A stretch of 64,000 nucleotides of DNA. Origin: Lophium mytilinum (lineage: Eukaryota). Position numbers and translations under genes: made by a program. The notes under the pieces are model-generated. The model worked only from the letters and a program-made list of their open reading frames with translations. It made no database searches and was not told the DNA's origin. This document shows positions 4,101 through 49,349 of the stretch, in pieces. The DNA lies in NCBI GenBank assembly GCA_010093605.1, contig MU004192.1:566882-630881 (forward strand), in the 5' to 3' direction. Numbering within the stretch: the first letter of the stretch is position 1; each line of letters starts with the position of its first letter.

Positions 4101-4496
4101 GTCGGCATCGGCAGTCTCGTCCACCAGCCAGTGCCCGAACCCGGGAACCTTCCTCAGACGGGTCTGCAAGTTGAGGCAGATCTGGAAGAGCGAGGTATCC
4201 TTGTCGGCCCGCCGGTTGAGGACATTGTCGGAGGCCTCAATGGGACCGCCATTGTTCACGGGCGTCGCGCTCGGGAAGGGGGCGTTGAAGAGGGTCGAGG
4301 TCGAGGTGGCCGCGCTGGACTGGGTGTCGCGGGCGGTGCTGTGGGACCAGTTGGAGTACTGGCTGGCATAGCTCTGGTGGCTTTGGGTATGCATGAGGGG
4401 TGACGGGCCGCTGGCCGAGTTCAAGCGGGAGTGCGTCGTGGGCGCAGCGTGAGAGGTGTGAGCGCGCGCAAGTCCAGAATGCAGGGCGACCTCCAT
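1160..4496 (-). CDS. CDC24: Rho guanine nucleotide exchange factor Cdc24/Scd1 (CH-like, DH, PH, PB1 domains), multi-exon
   Basis: Joined ORFs 3759-4496 (CDC24 CH-like: DPVTILWRTFRRGYPL...FIITDLYGDDTTGFVKV), 3141-3749 (DH: EMVKTERTYVQHLE...LLKPFQRLAKYPLLLK), 2882-3157 and 2645-2830 (PH: VEDWKGH...LQLKGRIF) and 1160-2539 (PB1: LKVKV...LKYLDEDDYVSIQSDEDV). GT-AG introns lie between them. Confidence 0.95.
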
Positions 4497-25309: not shown

Positions 25310-27052
25310 ATGCCGAGCAAAATCGAGATCGAGTCGCTACGGAGAATCAGAAGGGTGAATGTTCTCAAGTCTGCACATCCGACTCCGAACGAGGAAAAAT
25401 CTGAGGATTCACTGGAGATCTTGGTTCGACCTGAGGAGAGCACTACATATCATGACGGCTTGAAAGCCTTGACTAGGAATGACAAAGCGCTGGACGACGA
25501 ACAGAAAAAAACACTGCAAGGCAAGTTTCTTCCCAATATCAAGCGTTTCACATTTAACCAAATGGATAGAGTCTAGAGCCATGGTCCCTCCGCAGCTCTT
25601 CAGAGCCTACTCCATGAGTGGAAGTCGATCTACCAAGGGGTTCTGCGCGAACACGATCTTCCAACCCCCAACAGATCGACACCAACACCGAGATTGTCGC
25701 GACTCCATATATGACATGAACCAAGGAGAGATTACCGTAATGCTAGGGCATCACCTAGCATGGCACGACCGCAACGATGACGATTTGACGTCTTTCACTA
25801 ACTCCTTCTTGTTCGCGGTTGAGCACGCCCTGGGATCGAGGAACAAGCAGTTCGATTGTCACATCGCGGTGATCGACACAGCTAAAGCCATGACCGTGCC
25901 TACAAGGACATCCGCTGGCGGACAGCCTATCCATATACACCCAGCACTGACAGTCTATGTGGAAGCCAAGGTCGGAGCTTACGCCTTTTGGGGTAACCGC
26001 GATGGCGGGCGTCTGCACCCTCGGAAGTTTACACACGAGTTTGTCACCGTTGGGGTCGTCAAATATACGGAAATCTATCATCACATCTCCATGAACGATC
26101 TTATCAAGAAGGGCCTTTTCAAGATCTATCCTGAGTTCGACATCCCTGAAGGCTTCAAGACAACAGGATTATACACGAGGCTCATCGCTCTTCGCGAGGC
26201 ACTCTATTGCTCTTCTAAGCTAAAGTCGAAAGTCATCCCAGCGGATGTGGAATGTGCTCAAACAACATCCGATTCCCTCGAGGGCGACCTGGGGAACACT
26301 GAATGGGCGGAAGTTTCTCTGACCGTCGGCTTTCAAGAGAATGCTACAGATCCGGTTCCAGAGCAGGACTTGGAGTTTGCCGTGGATGTTTCTAAATCCA
26401 TGGCGATCCTCCAGCCAGGAGAATGTTTAGATGATGTGAAAGCGCCGCTGAACCTGGTGCTAGCCATTCTATCTCTACGATTGCGGGAACGTGGAAGCCC
26501 TCGGCTGATCAATTATATTAGAGTCAACTACGAGCGTACGTAAAAGTATACCTGATCAATGCGTTTTGCTGGACGCTCACTACCTCACCAGGTCAGGACC
26601 TCGAGAGCCTCATCTTCCCTAATATCTCTCATGTCGCAGATAATCTTCCGGAGCAGATACAATATCTCGATCTAATCAGAGACGCATGTGATGCGCTATC
26701 AGTTGAGATGATACCCGACAACATTCTTTCCTACGGCATTGGCATTGCGGGCCACGAGAAATTTCTAGAGGAGGACGAAAGACTCAAGCGTAAGAGGTCG
26801 CATAACCTGTGGAAAAAGAAAGTCGACAAGCCGAAGAAACGGAAAAAGGAGCAGACTTCGGACGAACAGCAGCTGAAACGCCAAAAATCTGACCTGGCTA
26901 CACCGGATCGAGCCGTTCGTTCTTCAGAGCTAGAGATAGAGCAGGTAGTTCAAGACGAAGCTACAAACGAAATGGCCAAAACGCCAACTTCAGAACACGA
27001 CGCTGCAGAGTTGATCGACAAGGCTTCTGAAGGTAATAATGAGAACACATGA
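25310..27052 (+). CDS. Hypothetical protein with ADP-ribosyltransferase-like motif pattern and a basic/acidic C-terminal tail (3 exons)
   Basis: ORFs 25310, 25479-26543 and 26708-27052 join through a GC-AG intron (25521-25570) and a GT-AG intron (~26537-26591). Motifs LFRAYS, HLAW, TSFTNS, IAVIDT, HEFV. NLS-like KRKR...KPKKRKK. Confidence 0.7.
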
Positions 27053-27890
27053 ACTAAATTGGAAAAGTCGTTCTGTCTCCGAGGCATATCTAGCTTCCAG
27101 CAAACGCAGGCGATCCTCAGATCACTCTGCTACTTCACCAAGATGCTTTGCAATTTGCTTAATATTTACATTTGCTTTAGTTTCCCATTTGCTTTATTCT
27201 CAGTCCAATAAACTCTCTAGCTGCACAGGCTGCGGAGTTACTAGAGTGGCACGGGGCTACTACACATTGGATGCCTAAAAATCGTGCGCTATGACTCCTT
27301 TTCTGGCCCCTCGATATGTCTCTGCTGTTACAATATCCCATATCATATTATCTAGATTGAATGCGTCAAGCCGTACAACCGTTTATTGATTGCCATTGGA
27401 GACTTGGCTGTGCCTAAAGGCTGCGCCGCGTAAATATTTCACCGTGGCGCACCCTATGTACAGCCATTTTATCGTTCACGGCTGTAGCCCAGCCGAGCCC
27501 CTCAAATTACCGACCTAACGGAAGTTCACACCCTTGCCTGGATCTGTAATTCTCCGAGTTTTTGTCTCCCAGATTGGGGCGTACAAGTACTACTTTATCG
27601 TCGAAAGCAGAACTAAATGAGTGCTCAGCCCAGTTGGTGAACCTTGTGGTTGGGTTGTGTAACGGGTACCAGCATTCGAGAAGCGTTGCAGAATCATCCC
27701 ATGTACACCCTCAGGAGGCATCAATTCAAGCCGCCAAAACGTTGTGGGATAGTAAATACGAGGTGGTGATTTTTTAAAAGCTCTTCTACTCCTCCCAGTC
27801 TTAGATCTTTTCCTCCAGCAACTAGTTCCATGTCAATTACACTCTCAGTCCCTAGCCCTTCACTTAGAGGTGTTACATTCTGATTTTAGC

Positions 27891-29978
27891 ATGTTACCGC
27901 AACCGAAGTCTCCACCTAGTTACTCCACGCTCACCCCTGAGAGCGACTCCAACTCGAAACCCTCTACTCCACTCGGCCCATTAAACGCCTCAAAAGAATG
28001 CTGCCCATCTCCTAAATCAAGATTTGGGAGTCAAATCTTGGCCTGGACCTCCGCTCTATTTACCATTGCCTTCCTTATCCTCACTGCCGTCTACGCCTCC
28101 CGCGTCACCGCAGCTTCTCATCTCCGCTTTCTTTACTCTTCCAGCTCGAATACCATATTCGTTCTCAGCGTATTATCCGGCCTTACTGGCTCGTTCCTCA
28201 CAGCCACTATTGCATCTTCGTTCGAACGTGTGCAATGGATCCTTATCTCGAGGAAGAGTGGCCTATTACTGAGCAAATACCTGAGTCTTCAAGCGGGAAC
28301 GGGGGTGCTAGGCTTGGTCACGCTGACGGTTGGAGGTGGGCATGCTTGGAGGAGTAAGGTGAGACTGTGGAGTGCGGTGAGGCTGTGTGGCATGGTGGTG
28401 GTTCCCATAGTGGGAATTTTGATCATGAGTGAGTCTGTGTTTCGTATTTCGATCATAGACGAGGTTTCTCAAACCCCTAGCTCGTCTAGAAACAACTCAT
28501 TGGTGTCTCGACTCTGCGAATCAGTCGAAATCACTATCAGAGCTGACAGTTTATTAGGCAATGTGAACACTCGAATGGTATTCGATGTCCTCGAGGAAGC
28601 CCGCGCCTCTCGCGGCTGGGGCATGAGTCTTTACAATGCTTCTCTGGCTAAAAATGTCTCAGCCATCGCCGACCAGCTTGTCCAAGCAGATTTAGCAATG
28701 TTTCTCTCTGAAAGAAGCCGTTCAGTTGACATTACGCCTATGAAACTACGGTCGATTCCTTGCTCTCACTTTCCTGGAACACCAAATACGCAAAACTGCA
28801 GACGCTCCTACTTCGTTCCCGGTGGCGTGGAATTAGCTGCTGCACCAACAGATAACGGGTCGAACCATAACAAGACCGATGTGATTCTGGCAAAGAGCCA
28901 ACGGGGCTACATTTTCGATTTCGTAGAGGGACCTACGATCAACGAAGAGTGGCATTTCGACACAGACACCGACTGTGAAGTGTATGGCTTCCCGTTCGGG
29001 GCGTTCTATCTGTGCCTCAAGAATCCGGCCAACAACACTCTTAATGCCAGTAAGTTCCTTGATATGCAGATGTCAGTCTTCCGAGCTGAACATAACCCCG
29101 CAGGAATCGTCCACTGCCCCAACGACATCTCCACCCTCTCCTCCTGCCACACCAACAAAACCTGGCACGCCCGCCCCGGCTGGACCACCTCCCTAACCAC
29201 CACCTTCCGCGCCGCCGACGTCGCCTACAGCAAAACCAACGGCACCATCCTCTCGCACACCTTCACCTCCCCCGCCCTCGCCGCCCCCGTCTCCGCCCCC
29301 GAAATGCTCGCCGGCTACCGCTCCGCCTTCTCCTCCTTCCCGGACCTCGCCGCCCTCCTAAACCTCTTCGCCGACTCCGCCGCCACAAACCTCTTCTCAC
29401 TGTACGTCTACCCCGCCATGATCTGGGCGAACCTCAAGAGCGTCGAAGCCCTGGGCCCGCAGAACCCGGCCGTCGTCACCCGTGCGCAGGACACGCTGCA
29501 GTGCTTGCTGGCGATTATGCTGTTCTACTGCCAGCCGGCGCTGTTTGCGCGGGCGCTGGCGCAGTATGCGGAGAACGCGACGCTGGGGGAGGCGTTCCCG
29601 GCGCTGAGGGTGTTTGCGCAGGAGCTGGTGAGGGAGAGTCCGCCAGATACGGAGGTTGTTGTGGCGGTGACGCGGTATCAGTTGCAGGTTGGGCGCGCGA
29701 CGTTGGTGGCGTATGTGGTGATTTGTGGGACGGCGTTGGGGGTGTGCTTGGTTGCGCTTGGGTGGGCGGGATGGGTCGAGGGGATGGGGAAGGTGAGGGT
29801 GCCGGAGACGAGCCATTTCCCGGCGTGGGATGAGAGGGTTAGGTGCAGGGTGGAGTCTGTACCGGATGGAAGTGGTGGAGGAGATGGAGAAGGTAGAAGT
29901 ATTGGAAAAGGGTTAATTAGGACTGCGGAAGGGCTGAGAATAGTGCTTGAGAAGGAAAGAGGTGGACAGGAGAAATAG
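27891..29978 (+). CDS. Uncharacterised multi-pass membrane protein with glycosylated Cys-containing lumenal region
   Basis: Long ORF with several N-terminal hydrophobic helices, many N-x-S/T sites and a C-terminal TM helix. Probable in-frame introns (gtgagt ~28429, gtaagt ~29050). Confidence 0.7.
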   Translation: MLPQPKSPPSYSTLTPESDSNSKPSTPLGPLNASKECCPSPKSRFGSQILAWTSALFTIAFLILTAVYASRVTAASHLRFLYSSSSNTIFVLSVLSGLTGSFLTATIASSFERVQWILISRKSGLLLSKYLSLQAGTGVLGLVTLTVGGGHAWRSKVRLWSAVRLCGMVVVPIVGILIMSESVFRISIIDEVSQTPSSSRNNSLVSRLCESVEITIRADSLLGNVNTRMVFDVLEEARASRGWGMSLYNASLAKNVSAIADQLVQADLAMFLSERSRSVDITPMKLRSIPCSHFPGTPNTQNCRRSYFVPGGVELAAAPTDNGSNHNKTDVILAKSQRGYIFDFVEGPTINEEWHFDTDTDCEVYGFPFGAFYLCLKNPANNTLNASKFLDMQMSVFRAEHNPAGIVHCPNDISTLSSCHTNKTWHARPGWTTSLTTTFRAADVAYSKTNGTILSHTFTSPALAAPVSAPEMLAGYRSAFSSFPDLAALLNLFADSAATNLFSLYVYPAMIWANLKSVEALGPQNPAVVTRAQDTLQCLLAIMLFYCQPALFARALAQYAENATLGEAFPALRVFAQELVRESPPDTEVVVAVTRYQLQVGRATLVAYVVICGTALGVCLVALGWAGWVEGMGKVRVPETSHFPAWDERVRCRVESVPDGSGGGDGEGRSIGKGLIRTAEGLRIVLEKERGGQEK

Positions 29979-33174: not shown

Positions 33175-34845
33175 ATGCCTAGTACCATCGATGTCGACAT
33201 TCCAACGTCGACGCTGGATTTCCAGCCCGCGAATGCTCCACAGATCGAGAGGATCAACGTATGGCTGGAAAACAGTCCAAGCCTGACTGGTTCAACTTTC
33301 GGTCCTGAATCACCGCGTTCAATCAACCGCATCAACCAGCGTCAGAACAGATCGTGGCAGGGCTATCAGGAAGATCGAATACAGCAAGTTCAAGATGTCA
33401 GAAGTCCTGGCTTGACCTCGGTGCAGTCGCCTATCAGCAAGACAAGCGACTCTAAAGGATGGACTGACATCGAAACTGGCATAGCTGGAACTAGGAACAC
33501 TACATCAGGGCCGCCCGCTCCTCACACCGAGCGCCGGGTAAGCATGCCAGAGCTCTTATCCATTCAAGTGGCTAGCTAGCTGACGAGATTTCTCAGAGCT
33601 GGAAACACATCCTCGCCGGCATGGCAGTACTCTTCAACTGCTGGGGCGTCAATCTTGCGTACGGTGTCTTCCAAGAATACTACGTGAACTGGATGCTCTG
33701 GGGCATGTCTCAAGGACAAGTGGCCTGGGTCGGCTCCACTCAGCTCGGTTTCATTTTCCTACTTGCCATGCCCGTCGGCAAAGCTTTCGATCTCGGATAT
33801 TTTAGAACTTGCTTCTTTAGCGGTGCAATCCTCCTAGTAGGCGGGCAGCTATCCCTTTCCGCCTGCACGAATTGGCGGGGGATCTTCCTCACACAAGGCG
33901 TGGTGATGGGGGCCGGATCAGGCTTGATGTTCGTGTCAGGCATACTCTACATCAGTAGCTTCTACGGTGACAAGCTAGACATAGTGATGTCGATGATTTC
34001 CCTCGGAGCACCCCTCGGCGGCATCGTATACACGGTCATCGCGCAACAGCTACTTCGGTACAGCACCTTCAAGACCACATGCTGGGTCTTCGGTGGCATA
34101 ATGACCGGGACCATGATACCAGCGTTCTTCGCCTTCCTAGAGAAGCCGAATCAGAAGGGAAAGCCGAAGCAGATCGTCGACTTGGGCATCTTCGGCGAGC
34201 CGGCTTATATGCTCATGTGCTTGGGCATGGCTTTCAGTTTCTGGGGATTGTACATAGGTTTCTATTTCGTAAGTCCCTCATCCCCACCCTTTACCCCTCG
34301 CGTTATCTCCTCGTCTAACACTCCCAAAGATCATCATCTACGCCATCGACGTCCTAAGCATGTACCCCCTCGAAGCCGCGAACTTCCTCACCGCCATGCT
34401 CGGCGTCGGCATCGTCGGCCGCCTCTTCGCCATGGTCATCTCCCGCGACCTCCTCGGGCCCCTGACCACCCTCATCTTCTTCACGGCTATGAGCGCGGCC
34501 GTCGCGAACCTCTGGATGAACGTCGGCAAGAAGTGGGAGCTCTACTTCGTCGGCTGTCTCTACGGACTGGTTTCTGCCGGCGTGCAAGGCCTCTTCATCC
34601 AGACGATATCGGCGTTTATCGAGAAGACGAGCCCCACGCGCGGGTTTAGAATAGGGGTGGTGCTGACGGCGATTGGGATAGGGGCGCTGACGGGCGCGCC
34701 GTTGGGCGGGTGGTTGGCGGGGATTCAGGGGCCGTTTCCGTTTTGCTGGACGCAGGTGTTTGCGGTGGTGGTTATGTATGCGGGGCTTTTCTGTTTTTTG
34801 GGGGCGAGGTATTTGAAGGTTGGGTGGTCGATGGAGCAGATTTAA
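33175..34845 (+). CDS. MFS transporter, monocarboxylate (MCT/Mch) family, 3 exons
   Basis: FNCWGVNLAYGVFQEYY, AWVGSTQ, GKAFDLGY, QGVVMGAGSG, IVGRL and ALTGAPLGG motifs with many TM helices. Confidence 0.9.
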
Positions 34846-35241: not shown

Positions 35242-38200
35242 TTAGGTGGTAACAGCTCGAAGCTGACCAAGATTCCAGACCTCGAAGTTATCGGGGTTCC
35301 CATTGCGGTCAAATGAGCCATCCCCAGCACCCGATTTCGCGTGGTAGGATCGGTAGTTACTTGCAACATACAGGACAACCCCGAAAGACAGCAGGTGAAC
35401 ACCACGGTCAGCGAGCAGCTGTTGTTCGTCCATGGGCAACTGCATAGTACGCAATTGGAAATATGACTTAAGGTTCGCGCAGTCCAGCAGCCTCAGAGCT
35501 ATGGTAACAATGCGCGCGTCCGATAAGGAGGCTCGTTCCTGGGCCTCATATTCCGTTTCCAACAAGTTCATATACTGTATAGCATTCCTGAGGTCATTGG
35601 CAGTGGGGTTCATTTCATATTCACTCCCTGGATCGAATGCTGTATGGGGGACCGGAGCGTAGGATGGGGAATTGGAGATTTGGTTTGCGATCTGATTTAA
35701 GCCGTCATTCGGGCTTTGGTCGGTCCTACTTTGGAAATTCCACTCTGCTTGTAGACCGTTGGTTGATCCAGCTAGCGGGGCAGCAGTGGGTGGCATATCC
35801 CACTGAGAATTCCCTGTGGAAAGCTGGACGTAATAGAACTCGCAGTACCTTTCCAAAGACAGTGTAAGCGCGTGTTCTTCCAGGTGGTAGGTTAAAGGTA
35901 GCGGATTGCGGACTCTGTGGAAGATGATACGAAATAGAGACTTACAAATCGTCCCATTGAGCTACCCAGCCTAACGGTACCTTGGGAACTGCCTGTATTC
36001 TACTCTTGGGAATGGTTTTCGGAGCGTTCAAAGAAACTTCGTGCTCTTGACTTCGGGGTCCGGGTGATTCTTGTCGTGCCATCACCAGCCTTTTCTTGTT
36101 TTGCCGCTCAAGAAGGAGTAATTGCGCCTGATAGTTTTTCAGTGGAATCCACTCGTCAGCCCAGTCTCGGTTACATTTCATGCAACTGTTTCCGCTCTCG
36201 AACAGGAACTGGGGGCGGCAATAGCAAACTTCGTGTTGCCGAACGTGACAGTCATAACAGCTAAAGCTTTGACCTTCTCCCTCCACAGGAAACCCCATTA
36301 TCACTTCTGTTGCTAGCTCTATCGCCCGCTGGTGGTTGGTACATTCGGAGATAGCTTCTACTGACGCTGCGCTCACGCTGAGCCACCCGGCGACTATCAA
36401 ATATACCTCTAAGCAAAGACGTCGGTGTTTGGAGCTTGGATCCTCTTCTATCGCCAATAAGGCAAGTTCCATAGATAAGGGATCCTGTTCCAGTGATTCA
36501 TTTGGTGAGTCAGTAAGGATAGGCGGAGGCACATTTGGGGCCGATGTTGACTGGCGTGCTGCTACTTCTTCGTGCGTTGATGTTCGAAATGCGCCATCCC
36601 TTTTGGTTCCGAGCAATATACCCTCATTCGTCCCAGATGAATGGTGCTCGTCAGTCCAACTGGAATACTGCGACGCAACGGAAGTCACAGACGACATGGC
36701 ATTGATGATTGATGGCTTTTGCAGGATTCGGGGGAAGGGTGTCCAATTTTCTGAGCCCGTGACAGTGGCCTGCATGTTTGAGGCTGACACTACTCGTCGT
36801 GTTGTTTCGTCTTCAAGGGACGAAGTCGTCCTAGCCGTCCGGCGGATGCTCGGTGGAATCGCAGGTGCGATAACCTTGTGGTTCTCCCTCACGTGTCGTT
36901 GAAGAGCTTTCAGCGAAGCGAAAGTAAGACCATAGTTGCAGTTCGAGTCACTACAAGCAAGTCTTGGGGTATGGCATCGTTCGTGCTGTAGCCGAAGTTC
37001 ATCGCTTGTAAATCCAGTCGTAGATTGAACGCAGCCAGGAAAACGACAAGTAAAAGCTGTTGAGCCATAAGTTGCTTTGAAGAACGTGAGCTCAGCCGGA
37101 GTGAGGCCAGGGAATGTCGTGGAGCGGAGTAAAAGCTGGACTCTCCTTTGGTAGCTGTGTAGGGTGTCACTGAAAGGTGTCGGATCCTTCACAGGCGTCG
37201 CTACGTAGCCTTGAAACTGCAATCAGTAGTGATCACGAGGGAAATATGAGTCGAATCAGCTTTTGGACATACCATCTACGCCATCCTCGGACTCAGACTG
37301 TGGACGGCGTCGATATCGGAGCAGCTGGCGAGCCATTCCGAAGGTCTCGGGCTGTGATTTCAGTAGAGACAAGCGAGCGTCGTCGTCGGCATCTAATCTG
37401 AGTGCTTCATGGTCGTGTGAGTAAGATTGGGTGCCCAGAACACGGCTTTGATATCTTTTATGGAGAGCCACTAGAACGCTGACTTTCTTGTCAAGTATGA
37501 CCGGATTTGATTGGCGCGAGACCTGTCGAGCTTGGGTGTAACATAGTAAGTGCTCCAACCAGTACTCGACAGCGTACAAATGCAAACCATTAAAGCCTTT
37601 GCCAACATTGACGGTACGCTCGTCTTCAGAAATGCGACCATTGATCAAATTGATTCCCTGGAGCATGTAGGTGACGCAAGAGAGCGTCAAATTATACTCC
37701 GCTCTCTCTGTGTGCAAAAATGGTCCACTCGATTCATGCAGGAAGTACCTTTTTAAAGTTAGCAGGGGAAGAATAGGCACAAATTTTCAGAGTAAACTTA
37801 CTCGTGAACCGTGAAGTGAACGAACACGATGGTATTGTCTGGTCCATCTTCAATAAGGGGTCTGCAAAGTTGCAAAACTGTTTCTGGTAGTTTTGTTTTC
37901 TCGCTCAGAATAGTGTTACTGGCGGTGAGTGCTACAGCATCTTGGACCTCATACTTCTTGGGGGCGCGCTTTGCAAAAGTAATCCACTCAAGGATTCGAA
38001 CGGCTTTGTCGTAATTTTGAGGACTGAAAGATTTTATCCGGAGGATGATTCTTTCGTAACTAGGCGTTTGATTAACCCGGGGCCGAGATCGAGAATATGC
38101 AGCTCAGACTCACAGCTCTGTCAGACCGACAGGGAACGCATCGATTGCAGTCCTTAATTCGTTGGCATTGTAAACGTCATCCTCCAAAATATCCAGGACA

Positions 38201-39980
38201 AGTCTGACCCAAAGGAACATTCCTGTTGTGAAGTGTTAGCATTTTCCATATCGGTGGTTTTCTAGGCATAGTAGAGAGCTCATAACCTTTAGATTTGTCT
38301 ACAAGTCGTTTTTCAAAATCTTCCATGGTACTTGTATCGATGTTCAGTTCCCGAAACTTGGTTTGCATCTCTAAGAGCCGTTGTTTGGCAAAGGAGCCAA
38401 TGGCGGCATCAACGGCCGTTGCCTCATCGTTCAGTGAGAGCGAGGGCTTCCTTGACAACACTGCGTTTATATGCCTCACATCCCTACTGACAATGAGGAT
38501 TGGGCAGGATTCGTACGTGACATTAGATGAGAATGCCAGGATATTTTTCAGGACATCTTTCTGTTCCGAATCCTGACATTCATCTAATCCATCAATAATC
38601 ATCCGAGGGCCTTGTATTGAAGCAAGAAGATTTGGAAGTAGACTTGTGAGCGCTTGCGTGGACGGCGTTTGGCCTGTGAGAACGTACTCATCATACACGT
38701 AAGATGATAGGTTCTGGTGACGACGCAATACTTGAATAGCGAAAGACTTTAGTATCCTAGTCGATTGTTTGGACGTAGCGTTCGCGTAGCTACAGAAGTA
38801 GAAAAGTACGCTGGATTGACCGTCTTGTCGAAGGAATTGAATCAGTTTAGAGCAAAGCACACTCTTACCGGAGCCCGGCTTTCCTTTCAGCCACAGTATG
38901 GGCTTGTTTCCTTGTGTTCTCAACCAGTTCTTCACGGGCAATCTACTTAGGATCCACTCAGCCGTGTTTGGGTAACAGGAACCCAAGAGTTGATCAAGCC
39001 GATTCTCCTGTTCGTCTTGTGCGTCTTGGTCGGCGGTTCGATCTCCAAGCCAACTTAGAACGTGACGATACTGGGCCGCGGACATCTCAGTCTCTCGCTT
39101 TTTCGCTTCTCGAGCCGCCCGTTCTCTCCACTCTCTCGCTTCTGCGATTGATAGTGCATTGGCCTCTCGATCGACCAAGTCTGAATGTCGTGCAAGGCTT
39201 TCAAGTATGCATTTGAAGCGGTTATCAAATCTTCCCCATGACGAAAGAAAGAAGCACTTCCATGCTAAGTAGCTGTTAGCCTCGTGTTGCAGTCCGACGA
39301 TCAGTCTACGTACAAGGTTTTCGGAAGAACTCATAGGCACGACAATGGAACTCTAAGATGTCTGCATAAGCTACAGCGAGTACCTGCTGGAATTAAGGGT
39401 TCCCTCGAAAAGCCTGGCTTAAGCGATCGAAACGAGGTAGATTCTCTGCAATCTGGGAATATGCGGAAATGAGTCTTTCAAACGCTGTAGTGAAATCAGA
39501 TGCCAACTGGGGTTATCGATTAGTGAGAAATAGAGGACGACTGCACAGAGGAAGCAGACTAAGAAGATGCGAAGAAGATTGTTGTACCTGTATCATGAGT
39601 TTGATGGGCGCCTGGATGTCAAACGGTTAACTTTTTACTTGACACGGCGAGAATTTCCGTACCCATATCCACGGCAAATAAGGGGTGCCATTACACAAGA
39701 CTTCAACAACTTTAGAATATTTTTCTAGCCCATCTAGCAAAGGCTGTATCCGCTTCATGTTGCGAAGGCACTGCCTAGCCGCAAGTTGCCTTTCGATGTC
39801 TTTCGCGGCGTCTCGCACATCCTGCAGACCGGTCGTTCCGAAGACGTGTACATCATTAGCAGACGACTTTTTGACTGTGCTCTCGAAACCTTGGAATGCC
39901 GATTGAAAGGTCCGCCGAGCTTGTGGTGCGAGTGATGGTTGAGAGGTTGAGGGAGCGGCTGAGTGGACCGAGCTTGCCAT
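35242..39980 (-). pseudogene. NLR-like NACHT protein: N-terminal helical domain, NACHT, winged-helix region, C2H2 fingers, Som1-like helix, WW domain; in-frame TAA in exon 3
   Basis: ATG 39980. N-terminal domain (RNMKRIQPLLDGLEKYSKVVEVLCNGTPYLPWIWAPIK), Walker A GKPGSGKS, Walker B IIDGLDEC, GMFLWVRLV, FVHFTVHEY, CRFPGC..HERCH, CSDSNC..HVRENH, WW motif. Stop at 39393-39395. Confidence 0.85.
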
Positions 39981-40410
39981 GCCGACGCTGTGTCCGAGGT
40001 CGTCGCCGCGGGGATGAGGGAGATCAGCTTGCCTAGGGTACACGTAGGCAGAAATAGCTTGAAGACGCAAAGAAGGGGCTCTTGAGCTGAAGTTAAAGCT
40101 GTTTCTTGTAGATCATTGCGAGAATGCCTCGTCACAGAGGCAACGTCCTTCTGCTGGCAAGGCAGACGCGGGTTTCATGCAGGTGGCATCCGCCTTGTTG
40201 GCGCAGCTTCACCCCAAGCCTCAGCCTCATGGCTTGTGTCCCCAAAAAGAAATCGGGGAGCTGGACTGAACGTTGATTACCTAGGCGGATAACAAAAATG
40301 GGAAGCTGCTCGAGCCGTAGGATATGGAGGGCAAGGTTTGTTGATTTCCCGCAAGATAGTTACCAAGCATAGAGTACTGATCGAGTCGAAAACAGGCTCA
40401 CACCCGAACG

Positions 40411-43400
40411 ATGAGTCTGGATCCCGCTGCTCAAGCAAACCTGCCCATCGAACAGGCACTTCCTGTCCGCCCTGCGAACGATACATTGCTCTGGCAGCTT
40501 TCTGACGCCTCTTACACGGACGAGACTTCCCCTTTCGATGAGTACTCGCAACACCATCCCAAGCGCCGTCGGCTAGACAACAATGATCTTCGTGAGCGTA
40601 GATCAGGAGGTCGGGATACACAATCATGGGCACAAAGAAGGGTAGATCAGCGTAGCTATCCTGTAGCTGTATCTGCCGTGGTTCACTCCTCCGTGGCCTT
40701 TGCTTCCACATGGTCTTGCGTCTCAGAAAACGACTCCAGTCTTCCAGGCTTCAACAATCATGCCTTTGTGCCCGGGAAAGAAAACAGTCAGTTCAATGAC
40801 GTTGAAACGAGCACGGGGTCATACTCCGTTCTTGAAGACCTTGGTTCGGTGTCCCCAATGACACCACAGCGTCCGTCATCCGGAGCCCATCGGATTCAAA
40901 CGCCTATCAATTATGACTATGGGGTACAAGTTCCTTCTAGAAACACTGCCAATTGGGGTGCAAGGTACCCAGGAACCTCATGCCCGGTTTCTTATAATCT
41001 TATTCTATCCCCAGGTCCCGTAGATTCATCTGTCAGTCTCGCTGGGAAGCTTGAACCACCGCCATCATTGCAACCTAACGTCCAAAATGTAGACGATGAC
41101 ATTTGCTATGGCATGGTAAGAGGCTGATTTCCTATTTTCTTATGTCTCAATTCATGTCCGCCATCCTCTACTCTGGGGCTATCGATCAATATGCGTGGTA
41201 GCAAATGCAGATGGCCAGGTTCGTGTATTGTGAGACCCATGGACTGAGAAGCGACCACCCTGTCTTAGATATGGCTAACAACGTCCAAAAGATCGCAAAT
41301 CTCGATGCCAGATTTCCGTCGACCGCGTTGCCAAACAGTTCTTCGTACATTCCTGTCGGAATTTCCGTTGCAGGGCATCCCTACCTGCTTAGAAATCATT
41401 CCGTAGAAGGCCTTCTGGGTCCGCGCGAAGCGCAAATTCTCCAAACCCTCTCGAAGGACGAACAAATCGACCTTGAGCTAGCCATTTCAGCCCAGTCGGA
41501 AAGGTCTACGAAGCATACAGTCAGAGGAGTGGTCCAACGGTCCCTGAAGACAATAATTTACGGCCCTGCAAGCCTATCCGACGAAGTCGGCGAGTTTTTG
41601 CAAGCTTGCAACGTTTACTTGCAAGATCCAATTGGATGTCATCGGAACGTTCGGTATCGTAACCCCCATCGTTTGTCTAGCTTAGACGATGACGGCCCGA
41701 TGACATTTGACTTTCAATCGTCACATACTCAGTTACAACTGACTGACGTTGATGATGAACACGACCTCCTTGAAGCTCTGAACGCTCCGACGAACTTGCC
41801 CGAGACAGAGTCACCTCTACAGCTCGAAACACCTTTACTACAGTAAGACAACTGGACACCCTGTTAGCAGAAGTGATTTGACATTCCAATAGACACCAGA
41901 AACAAGCTTTGCATTTCATGATTTGTCGAGAGCTAGGCTGGTCCCTAAAAGACGCACGCAAAGACGTTTGGACCCAGGAAAATTCAGGCATGTCGACAGT
42001 ATACAGAAACAACATCACTGGTAGAGCGCAAGCACATCCACCGCCCAAGTTTTCCGGTGGTATTCTTGCAGACCCAATGGGACTTGGAAAGTCTTTGACT
42101 GTGATATCGCTCATCGTTAATGATGTTCTGGCATCGCAGAGAGGAGGATTTGGGGTGTTAGATAACTCGGCATCTTGGTCTGACGCTCAGACCACGATGG
42201 ACGCAACACTGCTTGTGGTACCACTCCCCCGTAGGTGACCTTGCTTTCTCATATATTAAAAAGCTCGCTAAACTCCTAGTAATAACCATGTGGGAAGAGC
42301 AATTTCAGAGGTATGAGAACACAACATTCTCCGTGAATAGTTGCTGACTTTCCAGACACTGTAAACAAGGTCTACTAGTTGTCCGGCGGCATCATAGTAC
42401 CAAGCGCCTCAACAATATTCTCCAATTGCAGAGACCTAATGTCGTCATTACAACCTATCAAACCATCGAGTCCGAATGGAGGAAAGGAATGAACTCAGAG
42501 CAGAGCTTAATATTCTCAACTCGTTGGAAGCGACTTGTTCTAGATGAAGGTATTACAACCTGATGACTTCGCCTTCTTCTTTCCTTTGCTGATTTCATAG
42601 CCCACTACGTACGGGACAATAGTACCAATACTTTCAAAGCTGTCTCTTCAATCAACGCGGTTTCACGATGGGCTGTGACCGGAACTCCTCTACAGAATCG
42701 ACTCACGGACATCGCGGCTTTGTTGCAGCTTTTGCGCGTCTACCCCTATGATGATCCAGCATGTTTCAATTCGGACTTCATCGAAACGTGGAAATCGGGG
42801 CAACCTACCGTAGCTCTTGAACGTCTTAAGCTTCTACTTCGGTACACTCTCTTGCGTCGGTCTAAAAGTACCGTCGACCTTCCCTCTCGATCAAACAAGA
42901 TCTCTCTTTTGAGATTCAGCAGCTCAGAACACTCAGTCTATGAGGCATCTAGAACGAAGGTCGTACGTGCACTGCATAATGCCCTACCGTCTCACGGAGC
43001 GATAGCCTCTCAAACGACCTACCTCAACGTTCTCCAGCAGATCCACGACCTCCGCTTAATATGTAATCTGGGAGTCCATCGGCAATCTACTTCTACCCGG
43101 AAATCAAACAAGACCATGATTCGAGAAGGGCTCGAGTGGAATACTGCGACAGCTCAAAAGACCTTTGAGTCTTTGACAGCTGTTGGAGAAGTCTCATGTG
43201 CTCATTGTGGCTTAGACGTTGAAACTGATGAGGCCATGGAGACGGACTCCGTGAACTTGAGACTGGGTGCTCCCTATGGTGCTCATCTGTCTCGATGTCT
43301 CAAAGTGATATGCCCCAGTTGCGTTCAGCAACGTCGGGATTTTTCTAATGGGGCATTCGGATCTATATGTGGCCATAACCCATCTTGTCACTTGGTGCCG

Positions 43401-44204
43401 GTGTCTCGAAGTCCATCCACGAATGGCTCTTCTGGCCGATCAACGCCTTCCAACACAGCTTTTGAGCCACCTCAAGAAGACCTACCGACGAAGATTAGAG
43501 CACTTGTGACAGACTTGCAAAGTCTTTCTCGAGACGTGAAGAGGTGAGACCAAACTTGAAACATGCTCAGATTGCTTAAACTAACACGAAAAGCGTGGTG
43601 TTCTCATACTGGGCTTCCACTCTAGATCTGATCGAACGAGGGCTTGAAACCAACGGTATCCAGTACGTTAGATTCGACGGAAAGCTCTCGCCGGAGGCTC
43701 GCCACCTTGTTTTGGAGAAATTTAGACGCGATGCTAGCATCACGGTCATTCTCATGACCATTACTTGCGCATCAGTCGGGTGAATAGAGAGATATCCGTC
43801 ACATTCAATAGAGGCTGCTAACACTGCCCAGTCTTGATATCACTGCAGCTTCCCGCGCTTATATCATGGAGCCGCAATGGAACCCAACGGTTGAAGAACA
43901 GGCCCTCGCCCGCATCCACCGGATGGGCCAGACCAAGGATGTAACGACGGTCCGTTTCGTTATGGAGGGTTCTTTTGAGCAGGTCCAGGACCCTCTCTGT
44001 GGGTTTGGTGAATGTTTGCTGACACATCGTAGCGTGTGAGGGATATACAACATAAGAAAACGGAGTTGGCGGAGCTCTTGCTATCTGAGAAGCCTTACCA
44101 GGCAGGAAACGGGATTGGAAGGCTTCAGGTGAGTGCTGCCGTCTGACTTTGTCAAGTGTGACTTTACTAAGAGCTGCCAGTACCTCCAATCTTTGCTCAA
44201 ATAA
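40411..44204 (+). CDS. SNF2-family ATPase/helicase (Rad5/Rad16-like), multi-exon, apparently intact
   Basis: HQKQAL, GGILADPMGLGKS, TLLVVP, ITTY, intron-split LVLDE|AH, RWAVTGTPLQN, LRRSK, Cys-rich insert (CAHC...CPSC), VVFSYW, RFDG, G|LDITAASRAYIMEPQWNP...QALARIHRMGQ. Last exon YLQSLLK* ends at 44204. Confidence 0.92.
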
Positions 44205-45216
44205 GGAAAGCATTGTGGGTTGAAGAAAGTGGATGAGAGGCTCTCTAATACGCACTGTATATACGGAGTCCATACCTTAGGCCCTTGCTCACTCTAGGCG
44301 GCGTTCTAAATGCGACTCGACCACTGGACAGCTCTTCCTGCATTTTGGAAGACATTTTAATGCATGCTGTGGTGTAATTTACCAGGGTTATTGGGATTTC
44401 CATGACTCGTGAAGTTTGTACCTGATTTTTTTCCAGATCCTGTCAAACATACATCTAAATCGCCGAATTGATTGGCATTCATTGTCGACCGCGAGTGCAT
44501 CAAGACCGAATGATGCCTCACGGCCAACTCATACTTCATGCATGCAAGGCTTTGCAGGGCGTCCAATCATCATATCGCTAGAATATCCTCCATTGGAAAC
44601 TATAGGTACTAAATTTCGCGTCAAAGGGAGGACTAGAGCCCAACCAAAACGACTCCATGATTTGTCGATGCCCAAAGGCTCGGGGGCCCGTGCGTGAAGT
44701 TAACTCCACCGTCGGCAGAGCCTCGCCTCATCTCACGGATCATCCCTCACCAGTCCTGCCATTTGACTACATCAACAGATCTTGCGAAGGTAATCTGAAC
44801 AGCCTCACGAAAGGCCTTATTGTGGTCGGGAGTGCCTGTATGCAGACGTGGCGTCATGATAGCTACCAATTGTAGCGGCCATCAAGCAATTGAAACAGCT
44901 TCCGCGGCGCCACGCCTGAACATCCTCAATGCCGCTGGCATTTCAGCTACTGGGAGCGAGGCCCAGCATCTGCATTATACTTCGCAATGCAGTAGCACGC
45001 GCATTGCATGCATTCTCTCTTGTGGTGCTGAAGTACCAGTATATTACTTCATGCTCTACTTCCATCTAGTCCCTTCCGTTTACCGCTCACAGGAAGCTCT
45101 GCCAGGACAGTGTTGTAACTTCATTTGGTATCATTGGTCTAGGTCTCTTATCATGGCGCTCATTGGTCTATTTCTTTCACTTTAGCTACCTAGCTTAAGC
45201 GTCCAGTCGTTCCAGG

Positions 45217-47005
45217 ATGGCTAGCTCGGATCAACCCCATCAGACAAAGCGAGTATGGCCAAACACCCAACCGCCCAGTGGGCCTTACTCAGCTTATCAG
45301 CCCTTCGCCAACCACGAACTGCCTCTCCGGCCCAGAGATCGGAAACCGTCGGCCTTGGACATTGTAAAAGCTCAACCGGTATTCAAAAGCTATTTTCAAA
45401 AGTATGGAGCCGAAGAGCTCGTGAAAGGCATGGAACTAGCGAAGAAACCAGACCTCATGCATGTCCTACGCAGATATGGCGCTGAAGAGATTGCTATTGG
45501 CCTGAATTTTGCTGAACATGACACTTCTTCTTTGGACTTCTTCGATGCGTTCAAAGATTTTGAGCATAGCCAGATTTTAGAATGCCACCGTGCCATCAAC
45601 CATAGCAATGGTACGAGCTTTTCCAATAGCAAAGCACGTACGGAGTGTTGATTAGTGCACAGTGCAATTAGGTTACCAACCTCACGACTTGGGGTACACC
45701 TTCTCCTCGTTTCCCAGGAGCTCAACTTCATATCAATTACCTTCCAATCAGCCCCCGAATGTCAGCCTGGGTCCTGACGGATCCACCAGTCACGAGATAT
45801 CGATGCCAATGGAAATATCCACGTCCAATCAGAAGCATTTCCGTCCCCACAAACACGTATCAAACCGTTCATCAGAAGCCGTATACGACTCACCAGCAGC
45901 TTCAACGCCGGCGTCAACTTCTTACAGCCGAATAAATCACAACAGGACTAGTAAGCCAAAGGACTGGGCCTGTACATACTGTGGGAAGGAATTTGCGGAA
46001 GCTGGATACTGTTTGAATCATGAAAAGACCCATCATAATCAGGAAATGAACTGGAGCTGTCCACACTGCCAATGCGACTTTCCAACCAAAAACGGCTGTG
46101 AACGCCACCACAACAAGCATCACGAGGACGAGTCGATCACTTATACGGATTGCAAAATCAGAGGGAAGCCAAGACCAGACTCGAAGCCAAAGACTGCATG
46201 CGCATGTCCCTATTGTGGCCATTTGTTTGAAGGTGCTACTAGCTTTAATGACCGCTGCCTGCATTTAGAGGAAGACCATTACAAAGCCGAACCGAGGATG
46301 AAGAAAAGCAACTTAGATTACTCCAGGATGATTCAAAGCTTACTACGTCGCCGTGAGCTCTTCAGCCGCTGGGCGCAAGCACTAGCTACTCTTAAAGAAA
46401 GCCATACGTTGTCTTGGGATACGGAAGAAGCGAGAAGTCTACTCGAATCTCTTGAAACTGGCAACTTCCACCTAAAAGGTACCATTACACCTCTGCTAGG
46501 GCGTGTTTACGCTTCCGCTATCAAGACTGCGAGAATCCCGAGCCGGTTTCAATACGACAGCTCACACGCAGACGCGCTGTCGAGCTCTGCCATCAATCAG
46601 CCTGTTCACCCTAGGTCTCTTACCTCCGAAGAACGACCGAGGTCTCCAGCTCAGAGCCAAAACCAATTTCCGCAAAGAGGACTGCCGAACAGTGATAGCA
46701 GCGGCTACACAGTCTCTGACATGCGTGCCAACTCGCGGACAAACCCTTCTTCTAACATCGGATTCCATCGTTCACAAATGGATCCCAGGCCGACAAATAC
46801 GCAGCCTGGAAGGATTTCTTACAATACATCAAGCCGCGGTATGTCTTCAACGCACATGCGTTCCGGCCGGCCTGATTCAGACGTCTCCGCTTCCTCGTCA
46901 TTCCGAGCTCCAGGCCATTCTGACAACAATGGCAATACGAACTCGAGCAAACACGACGTCTTCATGGGATTTGATGATCAGAGTACCACATATTACGGAC
47001 TATAG
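45217..47005 (+). CDS. C2H2 zinc-finger protein (putative transcription factor), 2 exons
   Basis: CTYCGKEF..HEKTHH, CPHC..HHNKHH and CACPYC..HLEEDHY, followed by a fungal-type helical segment (YSRMIQSLLRR). Intron ~45611-45662. Confidence 0.8.
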
Positions 47006-48023
47006 ATGCTCGTCCTCGCCTCATCCTAGAAACCTTGGCAACACCTACCGCAATGCTTCATGGCCCTGCTCAGATGAGTTTCGAGGCTTCGGCCATTGAC
47101 CATATCCAGTGGCCTCCCGTCGGACTGCCTCCTATCAGAGTACTTTACTTAACTTAGACATTCTTCTCTGCTCCGTCGGCACGCATGAGTTTCCCCAAAA
47201 AAAATCGTGGCTGTATTATCTACTTCTTTCTCCCACATCTTTCAGTCCACTCAGGCCACCTGTCCTCACCACACAATATCAAAGCACGTCTCAAATATTA
47301 TGTAGATAAGAAAAGTATAAGGTTGCGAGGAAAACCCTTTCTCGGGGTCAAAAACCTCCTATGTAGCCAAACCAAATCCACGAGAATCTTATCCATCTGC
47401 GCATCGACTCCTACTAAGTATCTGTCGGGTTGAACCGCTGCGCCAAAGGAGTGATAAAAAGTGGGAATACATAACTGGGGAAGGGTCTAGATAGCATAGT
47501 CCACAGAAGCCGGGTTTGTGCCTCGCATATACAGAGATATAGCGATACATGCAATAAGATCTTGATTTTAAGAAGTGGAAGGAGGGGATGCCCAAAGGCG
47601 AGGAAGAGAAGAGGGACGTGGGGAGGACGGGTACATATAGGTTTGTGCGCTAAGGGGATGCGTCAGTAGTGGTGAGTGGTAGGTTGGGGTTTCTACCATA
47701 GGTAGGCTCTTGATTACGAGACAAATAGCTGATTTTCATTATATTGCTATACGCATTGGCATAGGTATTAGTGCCGCAGCTGTGGGATTTAGGGCGATTC
47801 TTAATTCTAGTTATAATACGTTTTGGTTGTCGTTCTGAAATATACTGCGTATGGTACGGGTGGTCAAAGCACTTGGTGAATGAACATCGGCGTTCAACAC
47901 TTTTTGGTTCTGCCAAGACCTTCCCCGTTCGAGCACCTGCAGACTGGCTTCGCGCGACTGTCGCATCATCGCGCTCGACACAGCAACATCAACACCTTTC
48001 GCATCATGTAGATTCCTAGAAGT

Positions 48024-49349
48024 ATGCATATGCGCATTCGACTGTTCCGTATCTGGTACAGCACTACTTATACCGTCCTCTTCTTCCTTGCCATCGTCCT
48101 CCTCGCCGTCACCCCCGCCGATACCATCTACCAGTCCATCCGCAGCGATGACATCCAGAAGATATTTGTCGTCGCTGGAGTTTACCTCCTTACCTTCCTT
48201 GTTACGATCCTGATATACTCTACCCGCCTCTATACAAATCGCAGTGCTCTACAAGGCATACCGAAGGCCTACCTCCCGGTCGAAGATGGCGAAGTGGGCA
48301 AACTGATTCGGCGGCTGATTGTGAAGAATCTAAAGAGGAGTTCTATCGTCGCGTGGGATTCGCGCCCAAGGGAACTTGAGGAAGAAGAGCTGGAAGATGC
48401 GACAATGGGTAGCAGGCCACCTACAGCGGAGCGCCAACATACTACATTCAAAAGGAGCAGCCATCTGAATGAAACCACAGTCATACCAGTCTCATCAGCA
48501 TTGCCGGCCTGGGGCGAGATTGCTCATCCTGGGTGGTCCTGCCCTTCGTCGAGTGACCTACCCAATCTGCAGTTCTGGACCGTCATTCCTGAGCTCCCAA
48601 ATCTTATCGAAGCCAAGGCAGTCTCTCTTGCTCCTCCGGACCCTGCCTTCAGCCCGGAACAGCACCCGCAAGATACCTCACCGATACTACCGGATGCGCA
48701 AGTGGTAGCACTTCTTCAGCGCCCTGCAACAATGGGCTTGCGGGACTATCTCTCCAGATTGTCTTCCTTTGGCCTCATCAACCCTCCAAAACTCGGCGAG
48801 AAGTTCCTAACGCAATATGAGTTTGCGAGATTCTCCAACTCGCCGCTGACCGAACAGGAGTTCCGAGAACTCATGGCTGTGTTTGCTGATATCTTGAGCG
48901 GTATGACGGAGCTTGATGCCGAGCTCATCGCCGACATCCAGGCAGGCGATGTCGACTCCGATACTTTCAGTTTCACATCATCGATTTCCACGCAAAGCTC
49001 AACGGGCTCTGCGATACACCATCGCACGCCTCGTGTTCCTGATGAGACGGACTCATACTACACAAGCAGCACTTCGTCAGACCCCGGGCGAAATGAAAGC
49101 CCCGGAACGATTAGAACGGCGCCATCGCGATTCGAAAGGCGAAGTTCTGGAACTCGTCAATTGTCCAGTAGCCCTTCAGCGAGCTCTCTGCACTCTCAGA
49201 GATTTCAGTCTATGTCGCGAAGTCCGTCTTCAGTGATACGAGGATCACCTTCCTTAGCATCACTACGCTCGACACAGTCTGTCATACGATTGTCTCCCAT
49301 ATCGGGCGCCGGAGAGTTGCCATACCATTACGCTTTTAATCGTCCTTGA
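48024..49349 (+). CDS. DLT1: Defect at low temperature protein 1 homolog
   Basis: Two N-terminal TM helices with TPAD, RLYTNRSALQGIPK, IAHPGWS, YEFARFS, and an S-rich tail. Confidence 0.8.
   Translation: MHMRIRLFRIWYSTTYTVLFFLAIVLLAVTPADTIYQSIRSDDIQKIFVVAGVYLLTFLVTILIYSTRLYTNRSALQGIPKAYLPVEDGEVGKLIRRLIVKNLKRSSIVAWDSRPRELEEEELEDATMGSRPPTAERQHTTFKRSSHLNETTVIPVSSALPAWGEIAHPGWSCPSSSDLPNLQFWTVIPELPNLIEAKAVSLAPPDPAFSPEQHPQDTSPILPDAQVVALLQRPATMGLRDYLSRLSSFGLINPPKLGEKFLTQYEFARFSNSPLTEQEFRELMAVFADILSGMTELDAELIADIQAGDVDSDTFSFTSSISTQSSTGSAIHHRTPRVPDETDSYYTSSTSSDPGRNESPGTIRTAPSRFERRSSGTRQLSSSPSASSLHSQRFQSMSRSPSSVIRGSPSLASLRSTQSVIRLSPISGAGELPYHYAFNRP

Follow-up and report, generated by a model that had tools for sequence, protein, structure and literature searches.

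In yeast Rad5 and human HLTF, a HIRAN domain and a Rad5-type SNF2 ATPase act on DNA ends and fork-type substrates rather than in nucleosome remodelling. Fungal NOD-like receptors (NLRs) that form clusters with an adjacent effector gene reportedly signal by a shared amyloid or N-terminal motif. In the introduction of a study of Sordariales NLRs (PMC12258605), plant sensor/helper NLRs are described as head-to-head pairs in which one partner has integrated domains. NLR–NLR head-to-head pairs were also sought in Sordariales, where 13 were found, and the C-terminal C2H2 fingers of 34 Sordariales NLRs are discussed together with other non-canonical domains as putative integrated decoys (PMC12258605). 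The terms 'SNF2' and 'helicase' are absent from the main text of this study, and a word search of a fungal immunity review found none of SNF2, helicase, chromatin, zinc finger or nuclear (PMC10197012). Here we describe a locus of the fungus Lophium mytilinum in which a gene for a NACHT protein and a gene for a SNF2 ATPase stand head to head. The locus lies in a window of 64,000 nucleotides (positions 566,882 to 630,881 of contig MU004192.1, GenBank assembly GCA_010093605.1), and all coordinates below are relative to this window. The original prediction, made from the DNA letters alone, knew of no characterised example of such a pair; our literature search likewise found no description of a NACHT–SNF2 pairing in print, and nothing on DUF7708, the N-terminal domain of the NACHT protein.

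The NACHT gene (ATG at 39980, minus strand) and the SNF2 gene (ATG at 40411, plus strand) are divergent, with an ATG-to-ATG gap of 430 bp (39981..40410). This head-to-head layout, which the original prediction had put at about 430 bp, is confirmed both by Pfam and by the mapped public gene models. Pfam places NPHP3_N/NACHT in a minus-strand open reading frame (ORF) at 38177-39352, and SNF2-rel_dom and Helicase_C in plus-strand ORFs at 41882-44039; with domain E-values of 1e-35 to 1e-54, chance is no concern for these calls. The public proteins P0001 (BU16DRAFT_563473, 1053 aa) and P0069 (BU16DRAFT_563472, 1367 aa) are 100% identical to the window, where they map to 40411 to 44128 and beyond on the plus strand and to 39980 to 35245 on the minus strand, respectively. 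We consider it reasonably probable that this locus is one copy of an old, co-inherited and divergently transcribed two-gene module of Pezizomycotina, in which a sensor or scaffold and a DNA motor would be functionally coupled. This reading builds on the two gene families, their head-to-head layout, the conservation of that layout, and the transcription and splicing of both genes.

Both genes are transcribed and spliced. For X3, a sequencing run tentatively labelled as RNA ('RNA?'), we relied on the spliced joints alone and drew no expression levels, since contig depth cannot rank genes. One 15.8-kb X3 contig has the introns of both genes removed and runs uninterrupted through the intergenic region. 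It is unbroken over 39662-40333, from NACHT exon 1 across the intergenic region into the 5' untranslated region (UTR) exon of the SNF2 gene, so that the two transcripts abut or overlap head to head, two arrangements that the contig cannot tell apart. A 5' UTR intron of the SNF2 gene (40334..40393, plus strand, GT..AG) is present in X3 and in X4, and six coding introns of the P0001 model match listed X3 joints. The X3 piece 40394-41114 is unbroken and keeps 57 nt that the P0001 model cuts out, corresponding to 19 residues ('ARYPG...LSPG') of the first coding exon. In X4, which comes from a related organism, spliced SNF2 contigs that are 90-99% alike and have the same introns cover 40145-44128; the source of X4 looks like a close relative transcribing the SNF2 gene.

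The recurrence of a NACHT neighbour across fungi, on which the original prediction had staked its proposal, is borne out by linked contigs, by adjacent locus tags and by metagenome loci. Linkage was called when the same species name and a contig of equal length in bp appeared in both the SNF2 and the NACHT lists, from which we infer the same contig. The SNF2 list held 57 fungal matches, of which 52 from named assemblies were used and 5 set aside; the NACHT family gave 592 matches at E<=1e-20. A contig is shared with a DUF7708-NACHT match by 17 of the 52 SNF2 matches, a count to be read as a lower bound from biased samples because the best 120 of the 592 NACHT matches were compared and the SNF2 search relies on shared words of five residues. 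The 17 comprise Lophium and 16 further records from 15 species of Dothideomycetes, Xylariaceae and the lichen fungus Peltula. The linked contigs are those of Lophium (1,829,034 bp), Periconia digitata (3,596,248 bp), Amniculicola (521,659 bp), Byssothecium (519,941 bp), Alternaria dauci (3,445,196 bp), Dothidotthia (1,487,783 bp), two records of Paraphoma (1,255,663 bp for record 1 and 1,967,910 bp for record 2), Cucurbitaria (6,952,465 bp), Phaeosphaeriaceae sp. (90,223 bp), Pyrenochaeta sp. (748,530 bp), Peltula sp. (185,519 bp), Xylaria longipes (310,299 bp), X. flabelliformis (93,881 bp), X. castorea (243,504 bp), X. digitata (121,288 bp) and X. grammica (932,325 bp). The two genes have adjacent locus tags in A. 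dauci (004632/004633) and in Peltula sp. (004363/004364). Five of the linked contigs are just 90-244 kb long. Fungal genomes are typically tens of megabases in size, and for genomes of this size the probability of sharing a 90-250 kb contig by chance is below ~1% per case.

A further 80 metagenome loci were fetched by SNF2 alignment, the majority of them being unrelated SNF2 genes. A NACHT-family gene is found in two of the 80 (L001 and L015), in both directly upstream of the SNF2 gene and on the opposite strand. The NACHT ATG is at 9109 in L001 and at 8689 in L015, and the first SNF2 exon starts ~260-430 bp away, the start in L001 being estimated from the position of its KRRR motif. L001 and L015 have nothing in common except the pair, neither shares a flanking gene with the window, and a tblastx search with the window flanks gave no match in any of the 80 loci. 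Head-to-head orientation and short gap are thus kept in all three loci with readable DNA (the window, L001 and L015).

The gene trees are consistent with an old pair that descended jointly and vertically and was lost in places. In the 123-row NACHT tree, the linked genes occupy three places: a Dothideomycete clade of 23 rows (support 99), of which they make up 11; a position beside Peltula; and a Xylariaceae clade, where they account for 5 of the 14 rows. The SNF2 tree has them in the corresponding Dothideomycete clade (11 of its 16 rows), in a Xylaria clade (5 of 6) and in a group formed by Peltula and L001. The order of branching is the same in both trees: Periconia / Lophium / Amniculicola / Byssothecium / Dothidotthia / (Cucurbitaria, Pyrenochaeta) / (Phaeosphaeriaceae, Paraphoma, Alternaria). 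L001 stands beside Peltula in both trees, its NACHT gene being sister to Glutinoglossum near Peltula, and L015 forms a long branch in both, placed deep in the SNF2 tree. Since both genes share the history of their species, matching trees are no proof of co-evolution.

The SNF2 gene (40411..44204, plus strand) encodes the 1053-aa protein P0001; its end probably lies at 44204, with the last seven residues past one more intron. Pfam identifies the first ATPase lobe as SNF2-rel_dom (E 1e-53; residues 401-743, 41893..43067, plus strand) with the motifs DPMGLGKS, DEAH and TGTPLQN, and the second lobe as Helicase_C (E 4e-17; residues 887-996, 43497..43928, plus strand) with QALARIHRMGQ, so that all ATPase motifs are present. 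The protein also has a conserved KRRR motif resembling a nuclear localisation signal (NLS), and its best solved relative is Kluyveromyces lactis Rad5 (6l8n, E 3.4e-56). The original prediction had seen no obvious HIRAN domain and, in its place, an N-terminal segment with the motifs IIYGP...YLQDP...RYRNPH. At the level of sequence this holds, as the Pfam HIRAN profile (PF08797) gives no match to the SNF2 protein even at E<=10. At the level of fold it does not: we modelled the β-rich block that carries these motifs (41292..41726, plus strand) with AlphaFold2 and 20 homologues (pLDDT 82), and VIA aligned the model with the HIRAN domain of Rad5 (6l8o residues 181-328; Z 8.5, 86 residues aligned, root-mean-square deviation 3.0) and with that of human HLTF (4xzg; Z 8.5, 101/121 aligned, deviation 3.0). 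The next VIA entry is unrelated, at Z 6.2. Foldseek has the same entries on top with probability 0.97-0.99 and E-values of just 6e-3 to 3e-2, and the ESM Atlas returned no usable match for this domain. According to the model, the segment thought to stand in for HIRAN is itself folded as a HIRAN-like domain.

Between the two ATPase lobes lies a Cys-rich insertion (43197..43388, plus strand) with the pattern C-x2-C ... C-x4-C-x2-C ... C-x-H-x3-C, which aligns with the RING of K. lactis Rad5. Its eight Cys/His positions are conserved. The alignment with the Rad5 RING is partial ('CLKVICPSC' versus 'CLHTFCEPC') and the RING His is replaced by Lys; Pfam RING has no match in the SNF2 protein. A HIRAN-like fold and an apparently degenerate RING in the Rad5 position together point to a divergent Rad5/HLTF architecture.

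Searched on its own, the HIRAN-like block matches 561 clusters (50% identity) at E<=1e-3, with at least 280 at E<=1e-10. We scanned 20 of the longer matches among the 150 listed: a SNF2 domain follows the block in all 20, and Pfam detects RING, HIRAN or NACHT in none of them. In a FastTree phylogeny of 73 rows, the SNF2 family forms its own clade of 64 rows with support 96, separate from two HIRAN+RING proteins, a rad16 and a TTF2. References are few and include no bona fide fungal Rad5, and support values from FastTree are purely local. In line with the original prediction, the gene does not group in this tree with references of the Rad5, Rad16 or TTF2 type. The nearest homologue outside its own genome is 51% identical over a 326-aa query exon and 56% over 797 tree columns. 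Two distinct SNF2-family paralogues are found each in Cenococcum (P0002/P0004), Glonium (P0003/P0007) and Xylaria longipes (P0023/P0048). Judging from these alignments and trees, the SNF2 protein is a diverged Rad5/HLTF-type enzyme in a separate fungal family.

The NACHT protein has the architecture DUF7708–NACHT–winged helix–two C2H2 fingers followed by a variable tail. In the window, the helical DUF7708 domain (family profile positions 10-185) is encoded at 39312..39971 with two introns within, the NACHT/NPHP3_N NTPase at 38483..38968 (Walker A GKPGSGKS, Walker B IIDGLDEC), the two C2H2-type zinc fingers at 36878..37048 (CRFPGC...HERCH and CSDSNC...HVRENH, conserved in the NACHT family) and a C-terminal WW domain (P0069 residues 1156-1185) at 35791..35980, spanning the intron 35849-35945; all are on the minus strand. 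The WW tail and the NACHT domain lie in one spliced ORF in Lophium. Pfam scores NPHP3_N at E 1e-34 and NACHT at E 8e-9, with AAA_lid_TANC1 in P0069 and GPIID_WHD/HTH_TANC1 in relatives. The order of the family core is DUF7708, NACHT, TANC1-type lid and winged helix, a helical region and the two C2H2 fingers.

The tails differ between family members: WW in Lophium and Xylaria longipes, QLQ in X. flabelliformis, DUF7896+EVH1_PP4R3+KIX in Alternaria gaisen, SET in A. tenuissima, bromodomain+FHA in P0081 and Rsc7/Swp82 in Thelonectria. Precomputed Pfam lists add Zn2Cys6, Clr5 and WD40 tails, the last in a few distant family members, and some of the variable tails could be gene-model fusions. Among the canonical N-terminal effector domains, HeLo, HET, Goodbye, sesB, PNP_UDP and patatin are absent and DUF7708 alone is found; ANK, TPR and WD40 repeats are absent from P0069 and from eight scanned proteins of the partner clade. 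The DUF7708 model (pLDDT 82) is an all-helical bundle. The NACHT partner is probably a nuclear STAND protein with zinc fingers.

In Lophium, the NACHT frame contains a stop codon that the original prediction overlooked. The gene (35242..39980, minus strand) has nine exons by the joints of the RNA-type contig, with introns at 35849-35945, 37210-37272, 37749-37801, 38060-38113, 38223-38286, 39265-39313, 39507-39587 and 39612-39662 (plus-strand coordinates). Spliced at the X3 joints, the window gives 4227 nt, that is 1408 codons and a stop, and the sole internal stop is codon 152, an in-frame TAA within DUF7708 (39393..39395, minus strand); 1407 further codons form an open frame. Mapping of a 19-member family profile (A2) on the window leaves no profile-position gaps, the one exception being TAA 39395-39393, which is flanked by '...AFRGNP' and 'FQQVLAV...'. 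The X3 joints (39610>39662, 39506>39588, 39264>39314 and five more) retain the exon 39506-39314 that bears the TAA, and no letter differs in X3, nor in the DNA runs X1 and X2, from which the assembly may derive.

The closest relative among the matches listed, P0167 of Mytilinidion resinicola (88% identical over 584 columns), has Glu at the stop position. Of 123 proteins examined, a simple pattern captured 81, in which this residue is D 41 times, E 16 times and A 14 times. The likely event is thus a single GAA>TAA change. P0167 carries a partial annotation (636 aa), and no SNF2 homologue of Mytilinidion is among the matches listed; together these hint that the pair is decaying in this lineage. 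The public model P0069 uses a farther acceptor at 39387 and skips 39387-39506, whereas X3 uses the nearer acceptor 39507/39506; this choice drops 40 conserved DUF7708 codons in frame and thereby hides the TAA. An isoform of the P0069 type, which would lack a conserved part of the helical bundle, may exist, as contigs drop rare forms. With this nonsense codon the module is probably disabled or decaying in the Lophium genome: the NACHT half is probably a recent pseudogene or null allele, and the SNF2 half looks intact. The earlier proposal of a module thus stands insofar as the evidence favours a coupled module over an ordinary single-copy repair gene, and fails for this genome, where the module is probably non-working.

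Contact between the two proteins was predicted for the pair of Periconia, using SNF2 P0008 residues 64-870 and the DUF7708 region of P0070 (residues 30-220), and our own alignments did not enter the prediction. The score was 0.52 (runs 0.52, 0.54 and 0.52) and that of the best control 0.00, which the tool rates as 'weak support'; the runs agree in at least 51% of contacts, with a partner pLDDT of at least 63. In the benchmark, 51 of 78 solved complexes reach the pass mark, as do 2 of 108 mismatched pairs. Together with the conserved linkage, this score nudges up the odds of the predicted contact, and is no evidence of binding in cells.

Besides the sample bias of the pairing counts, several observations weigh against a coupled two-gene module. 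The NACHT frame is broken at codon 152, and no working pair is demonstrable in the Lophium genome. Direct adjacency is seen in five cases (the window, L001, L015 and the two locus-tag pairs), and the 14 other cases rest on equal contigs, which means linkage, not adjacency. Metagenome loci L002 and L004, with genes of the same SNF2 family and 10 kb on each side, have no NACHT gene, nor has L003 in 4.3 kb upstream. Contigs differ in size between the SNF2 and the NACHT matches listed for Trichoderma barbatum, Xylariales sp. AK1849 and Xylaria arbuscula, and the closest relative, Mytilinidion, has a NACHT match (partial, 636 aa) but no SNF2 match among the matches listed. The complex score lies in a range that the tool rates as wrong more often than right absent a good prior, scores of 0.60 or less being reached by 5 of 78 solved complexes but by all four passing mismatches (of 180). 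BLASTP of P0001 against P0069 finds no shared sequence motif (best E 3.2). The DUF7708 fold matched designed helical proteins only, with nothing at E<=0.001 in Foldseek, and its best VIA matches, designed helical repeats at Z 8-10, are inside the stated noise band for helical models. Other genomes bear less directly on linkage: Alternaria alternata and Glonium are uninformative owing to different assemblies or very short contigs, and among the matches listed Cenococcum has SNF2 matches only, and Lophiotrema and Pyrenophora NACHT matches only.

The pair sits in a housekeeping region. Its neighbours in the window include CDC24, INCENP, a short-chain dehydrogenase (SDR), an SH3 protein, a major facilitator superfamily (MFS) transporter, a carboxylesterase and a HAD hydrolase. 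The original prediction had named MFS and DLT1 as conserved flanks; the MFS gene is present to the left at 33576-34845, and DLT1 is not confirmed, the right-flank ORFs at 44799-49349 having no Pfam match and the ESM Atlas giving C2H2-like leads only for a right-flank ORF. The CDC24-type gene (PB1, PH, CDC24 calponin) is at 1160-4505 and the INCENP gene at 13189-17211, both on the minus strand. An ORF with DUF7587 (25473-26543, plus strand) lies ~8.7 kb to the left of the pair, and a 740-aa open frame with no Pfam family (27756-29978, plus strand) ends ~5.3 kb from it. GC content of the window is ordinary. A search for terminal or direct repeats around the pair found none, with only three short matches at chance level, and no transposase or recombinase domain occurs among the larger window ORFs scanned.

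In the mechanism that we propose for the two-gene module, gene 1 would supply a STAND NTPase (DUF7708-NACHT-winged-helix) with two C2H2 fingers and, differing by lineage, a tail made of nuclear or chromatin-type domains, and gene 2 a putative DNA translocase with the NLS-like KRRR motif, the HIRAN-like domain, the SNF2 ATPase and the apparently degenerate RING. The NACHT protein would bind DNA or a chromatin feature through its zinc fingers and tail and would oligomerise upon nucleotide binding. Its DUF7708 helical bundle may then recruit or license the HIRAN-SNF2 motor, which would act on DNA ends or DNA structures. This scheme presumes that the two proteins bind, that they are located in the nucleus and that signalling runs in this direction.

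The same evidence can be read in other ways. The NACHT protein might be a sensor of non-self or danger in immunity or genome defence, with its chromatin-type tails as integrated decoys or baits and with the SNF2 protein either as an effector on foreign or selfish DNA (transposons, plasmids, viral intermediates) or as a guarded host target. Fast evolution of both partners (~35-55% identity between orders) is consistent with this, as are paralogues within genomes, which include two NACHT types in X. digitata besides the two SNF2 types of Cenococcum, Glonium and X. longipes, and the shuffling between lineages of the tails listed above. WD40 repeats in some relatives recall classical fungal NLRs, the NACHT gene is apparently pseudogenised in Lophium and annotated as partial in Mytilinidion, and C2H2 and other non-canonical C-termini of Sordariales NLRs are discussed as putative integrated decoys in PMC12258605. 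However, DUF7708 takes the place of any canonical NLR death or effector domain, the partner clade lacks ANK, TPR and WD40 repeats, and the locus lies among housekeeping genes (CDC24, INCENP, SDR, MFS) with no flanking repeats and no transposase matches. The pair also seems vertically inherited within Dothideomycetes, and the PADLOC likeness is limited to the generic SNF2 core and a marginal Nhi match of the NACHT protein. We regard an immune role as possible, if on the unlikely side. The invariant C2H2 pair, tails typical of transcription and chromatin proteins and the KRRR motif fit with a regulator in which a DNA-bound STAND scaffold switches a gene set on or off through a dedicated SNF2 remodeller, with no sensing of non-self, for which bacterial MalT and vertebrate CIITA/NLRC5 are models among STAND-type regulators. 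The compact shared promoter and transcription of both genes are typical of co-regulated partners. Nevertheless, a HIRAN domain with a Rad5-type SNF2 points to DNA ends or fork-type substrates, and loss in Lophium and a patchy distribution are unlike a core regulator, and we judge this role unlikely.

It is improbable, in our view, that the two genes are functionally unconnected, the SNF2 protein being a diverged paralogue of Rad5 in damage tolerance and the NACHT gene a neighbour kept by inertia of gene order or by a shared promoter. Rad5 is indeed the best solved relative, evidence for pairing comes mostly from Dothideomycetes, where some gene order survives, and several members of the SNF2 family have no NACHT neighbour. 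But linkage recurs in Xylariaceae (in five of five species with both matches, on contigs of 94-932 kb), in Peltula, in L001 and in the very divergent L015; every flanking gene differs while the pair persists; and orientation and short gap are kept wherever the DNA is readable. Differing flanks and patchy taxonomic distribution might instead suggest that a mobile element, for example a giant transposon, carries the pair as a unit into new neighbourhoods. Since the pair is bounded by no terminal or direct repeats, has no transposase or recombinase domain among the larger ORFs scanned and shows ordinary GC content, and its trees track taxonomy within Dothideomycetes, we consider this highly improbable.

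Taking the coupled two-gene module one step further, it may represent an ancient nuclear surveillance system of filamentous ascomycetes, in which an NLR-like STAND sensor with swapped-in chromatin and transcription domains as baits or readers would license a HIRAN-SNF2 translocase on aberrant or foreign DNA. Such a system would be a convergent eukaryotic counterpart of bacterial sensor-plus-SNF2 defence, lost or disabled lineage by lineage, as in Lophium; we offer this as a tentative and rather unlikely extension. Few fungal NOD-like receptors, though numerous, have a known partner or output, and the NACHT–SNF2 pair, recurring in several classes of ascomycetes, is a concrete and testable one. 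Its Rad5/HLTF-like partner points to a nuclear, DNA-directed output and not to membrane-targeted cell death. If the link is functional, it would tie STAND signalling to enzymes of replication-fork or DNA-end processing in eukaryotes. A large, as yet unnamed SNF2 family also emerges, with HIRAN and RING parts that current profile libraries miss, and a public gene model is flagged as hiding a nonsense mutation.

Compared with known systems, the SNF2 core matches profiles of Zorya ZorD, DISARM DrmD and Dpd DpdE in PADLOC (E 1e-25 to 1e-54) in the two ATPase lobes only. Unlike in Zorya, DISARM or Dpd, the match is confined to the lobes, as any SNF2 protein would give, and no accessory genes were found in the window; for the NACHT protein, PADLOC found no defence family beyond one marginal P-loop match (Nhi, E 9.5e-4). 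Rad5 and HLTF have the same domain order as the SNF2 protein described here, namely a HIRAN-type domain followed by a SNF2 ATPase with a zinc-binding-type insertion between the lobes. Unlike them, the Lophium protein is undetected by Pfam HIRAN and RING, has the RING His replaced, belongs to its own clade and is linked to a NACHT gene. As in fungal NLR/effector clusters, an NLR-type gene adjoins the gene of a presumed downstream partner, whereas the two proteins here share no motif and the partner is a nuclear-type enzyme and not a membrane-targeting death protein. The NACHT domain resembles that of the fungal T-NACHT (TLP1-like) NLRs, as described in PMC12258605, in being of NPHP3_N/TANC1-like type with a winged helix; in contrast to the canonical fungal effector domains of T-NACHT NLRs, the N-terminal domain here is DUF7708. 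Finally, whereas the partner in plant paired NLRs is another NLR and here is a SNF2 ATPase with neither NACHT nor NB-ARC, the Lophium locus resembles the plant pairs in its divergent genes, its short shared promoter and the unusual domains of one partner.

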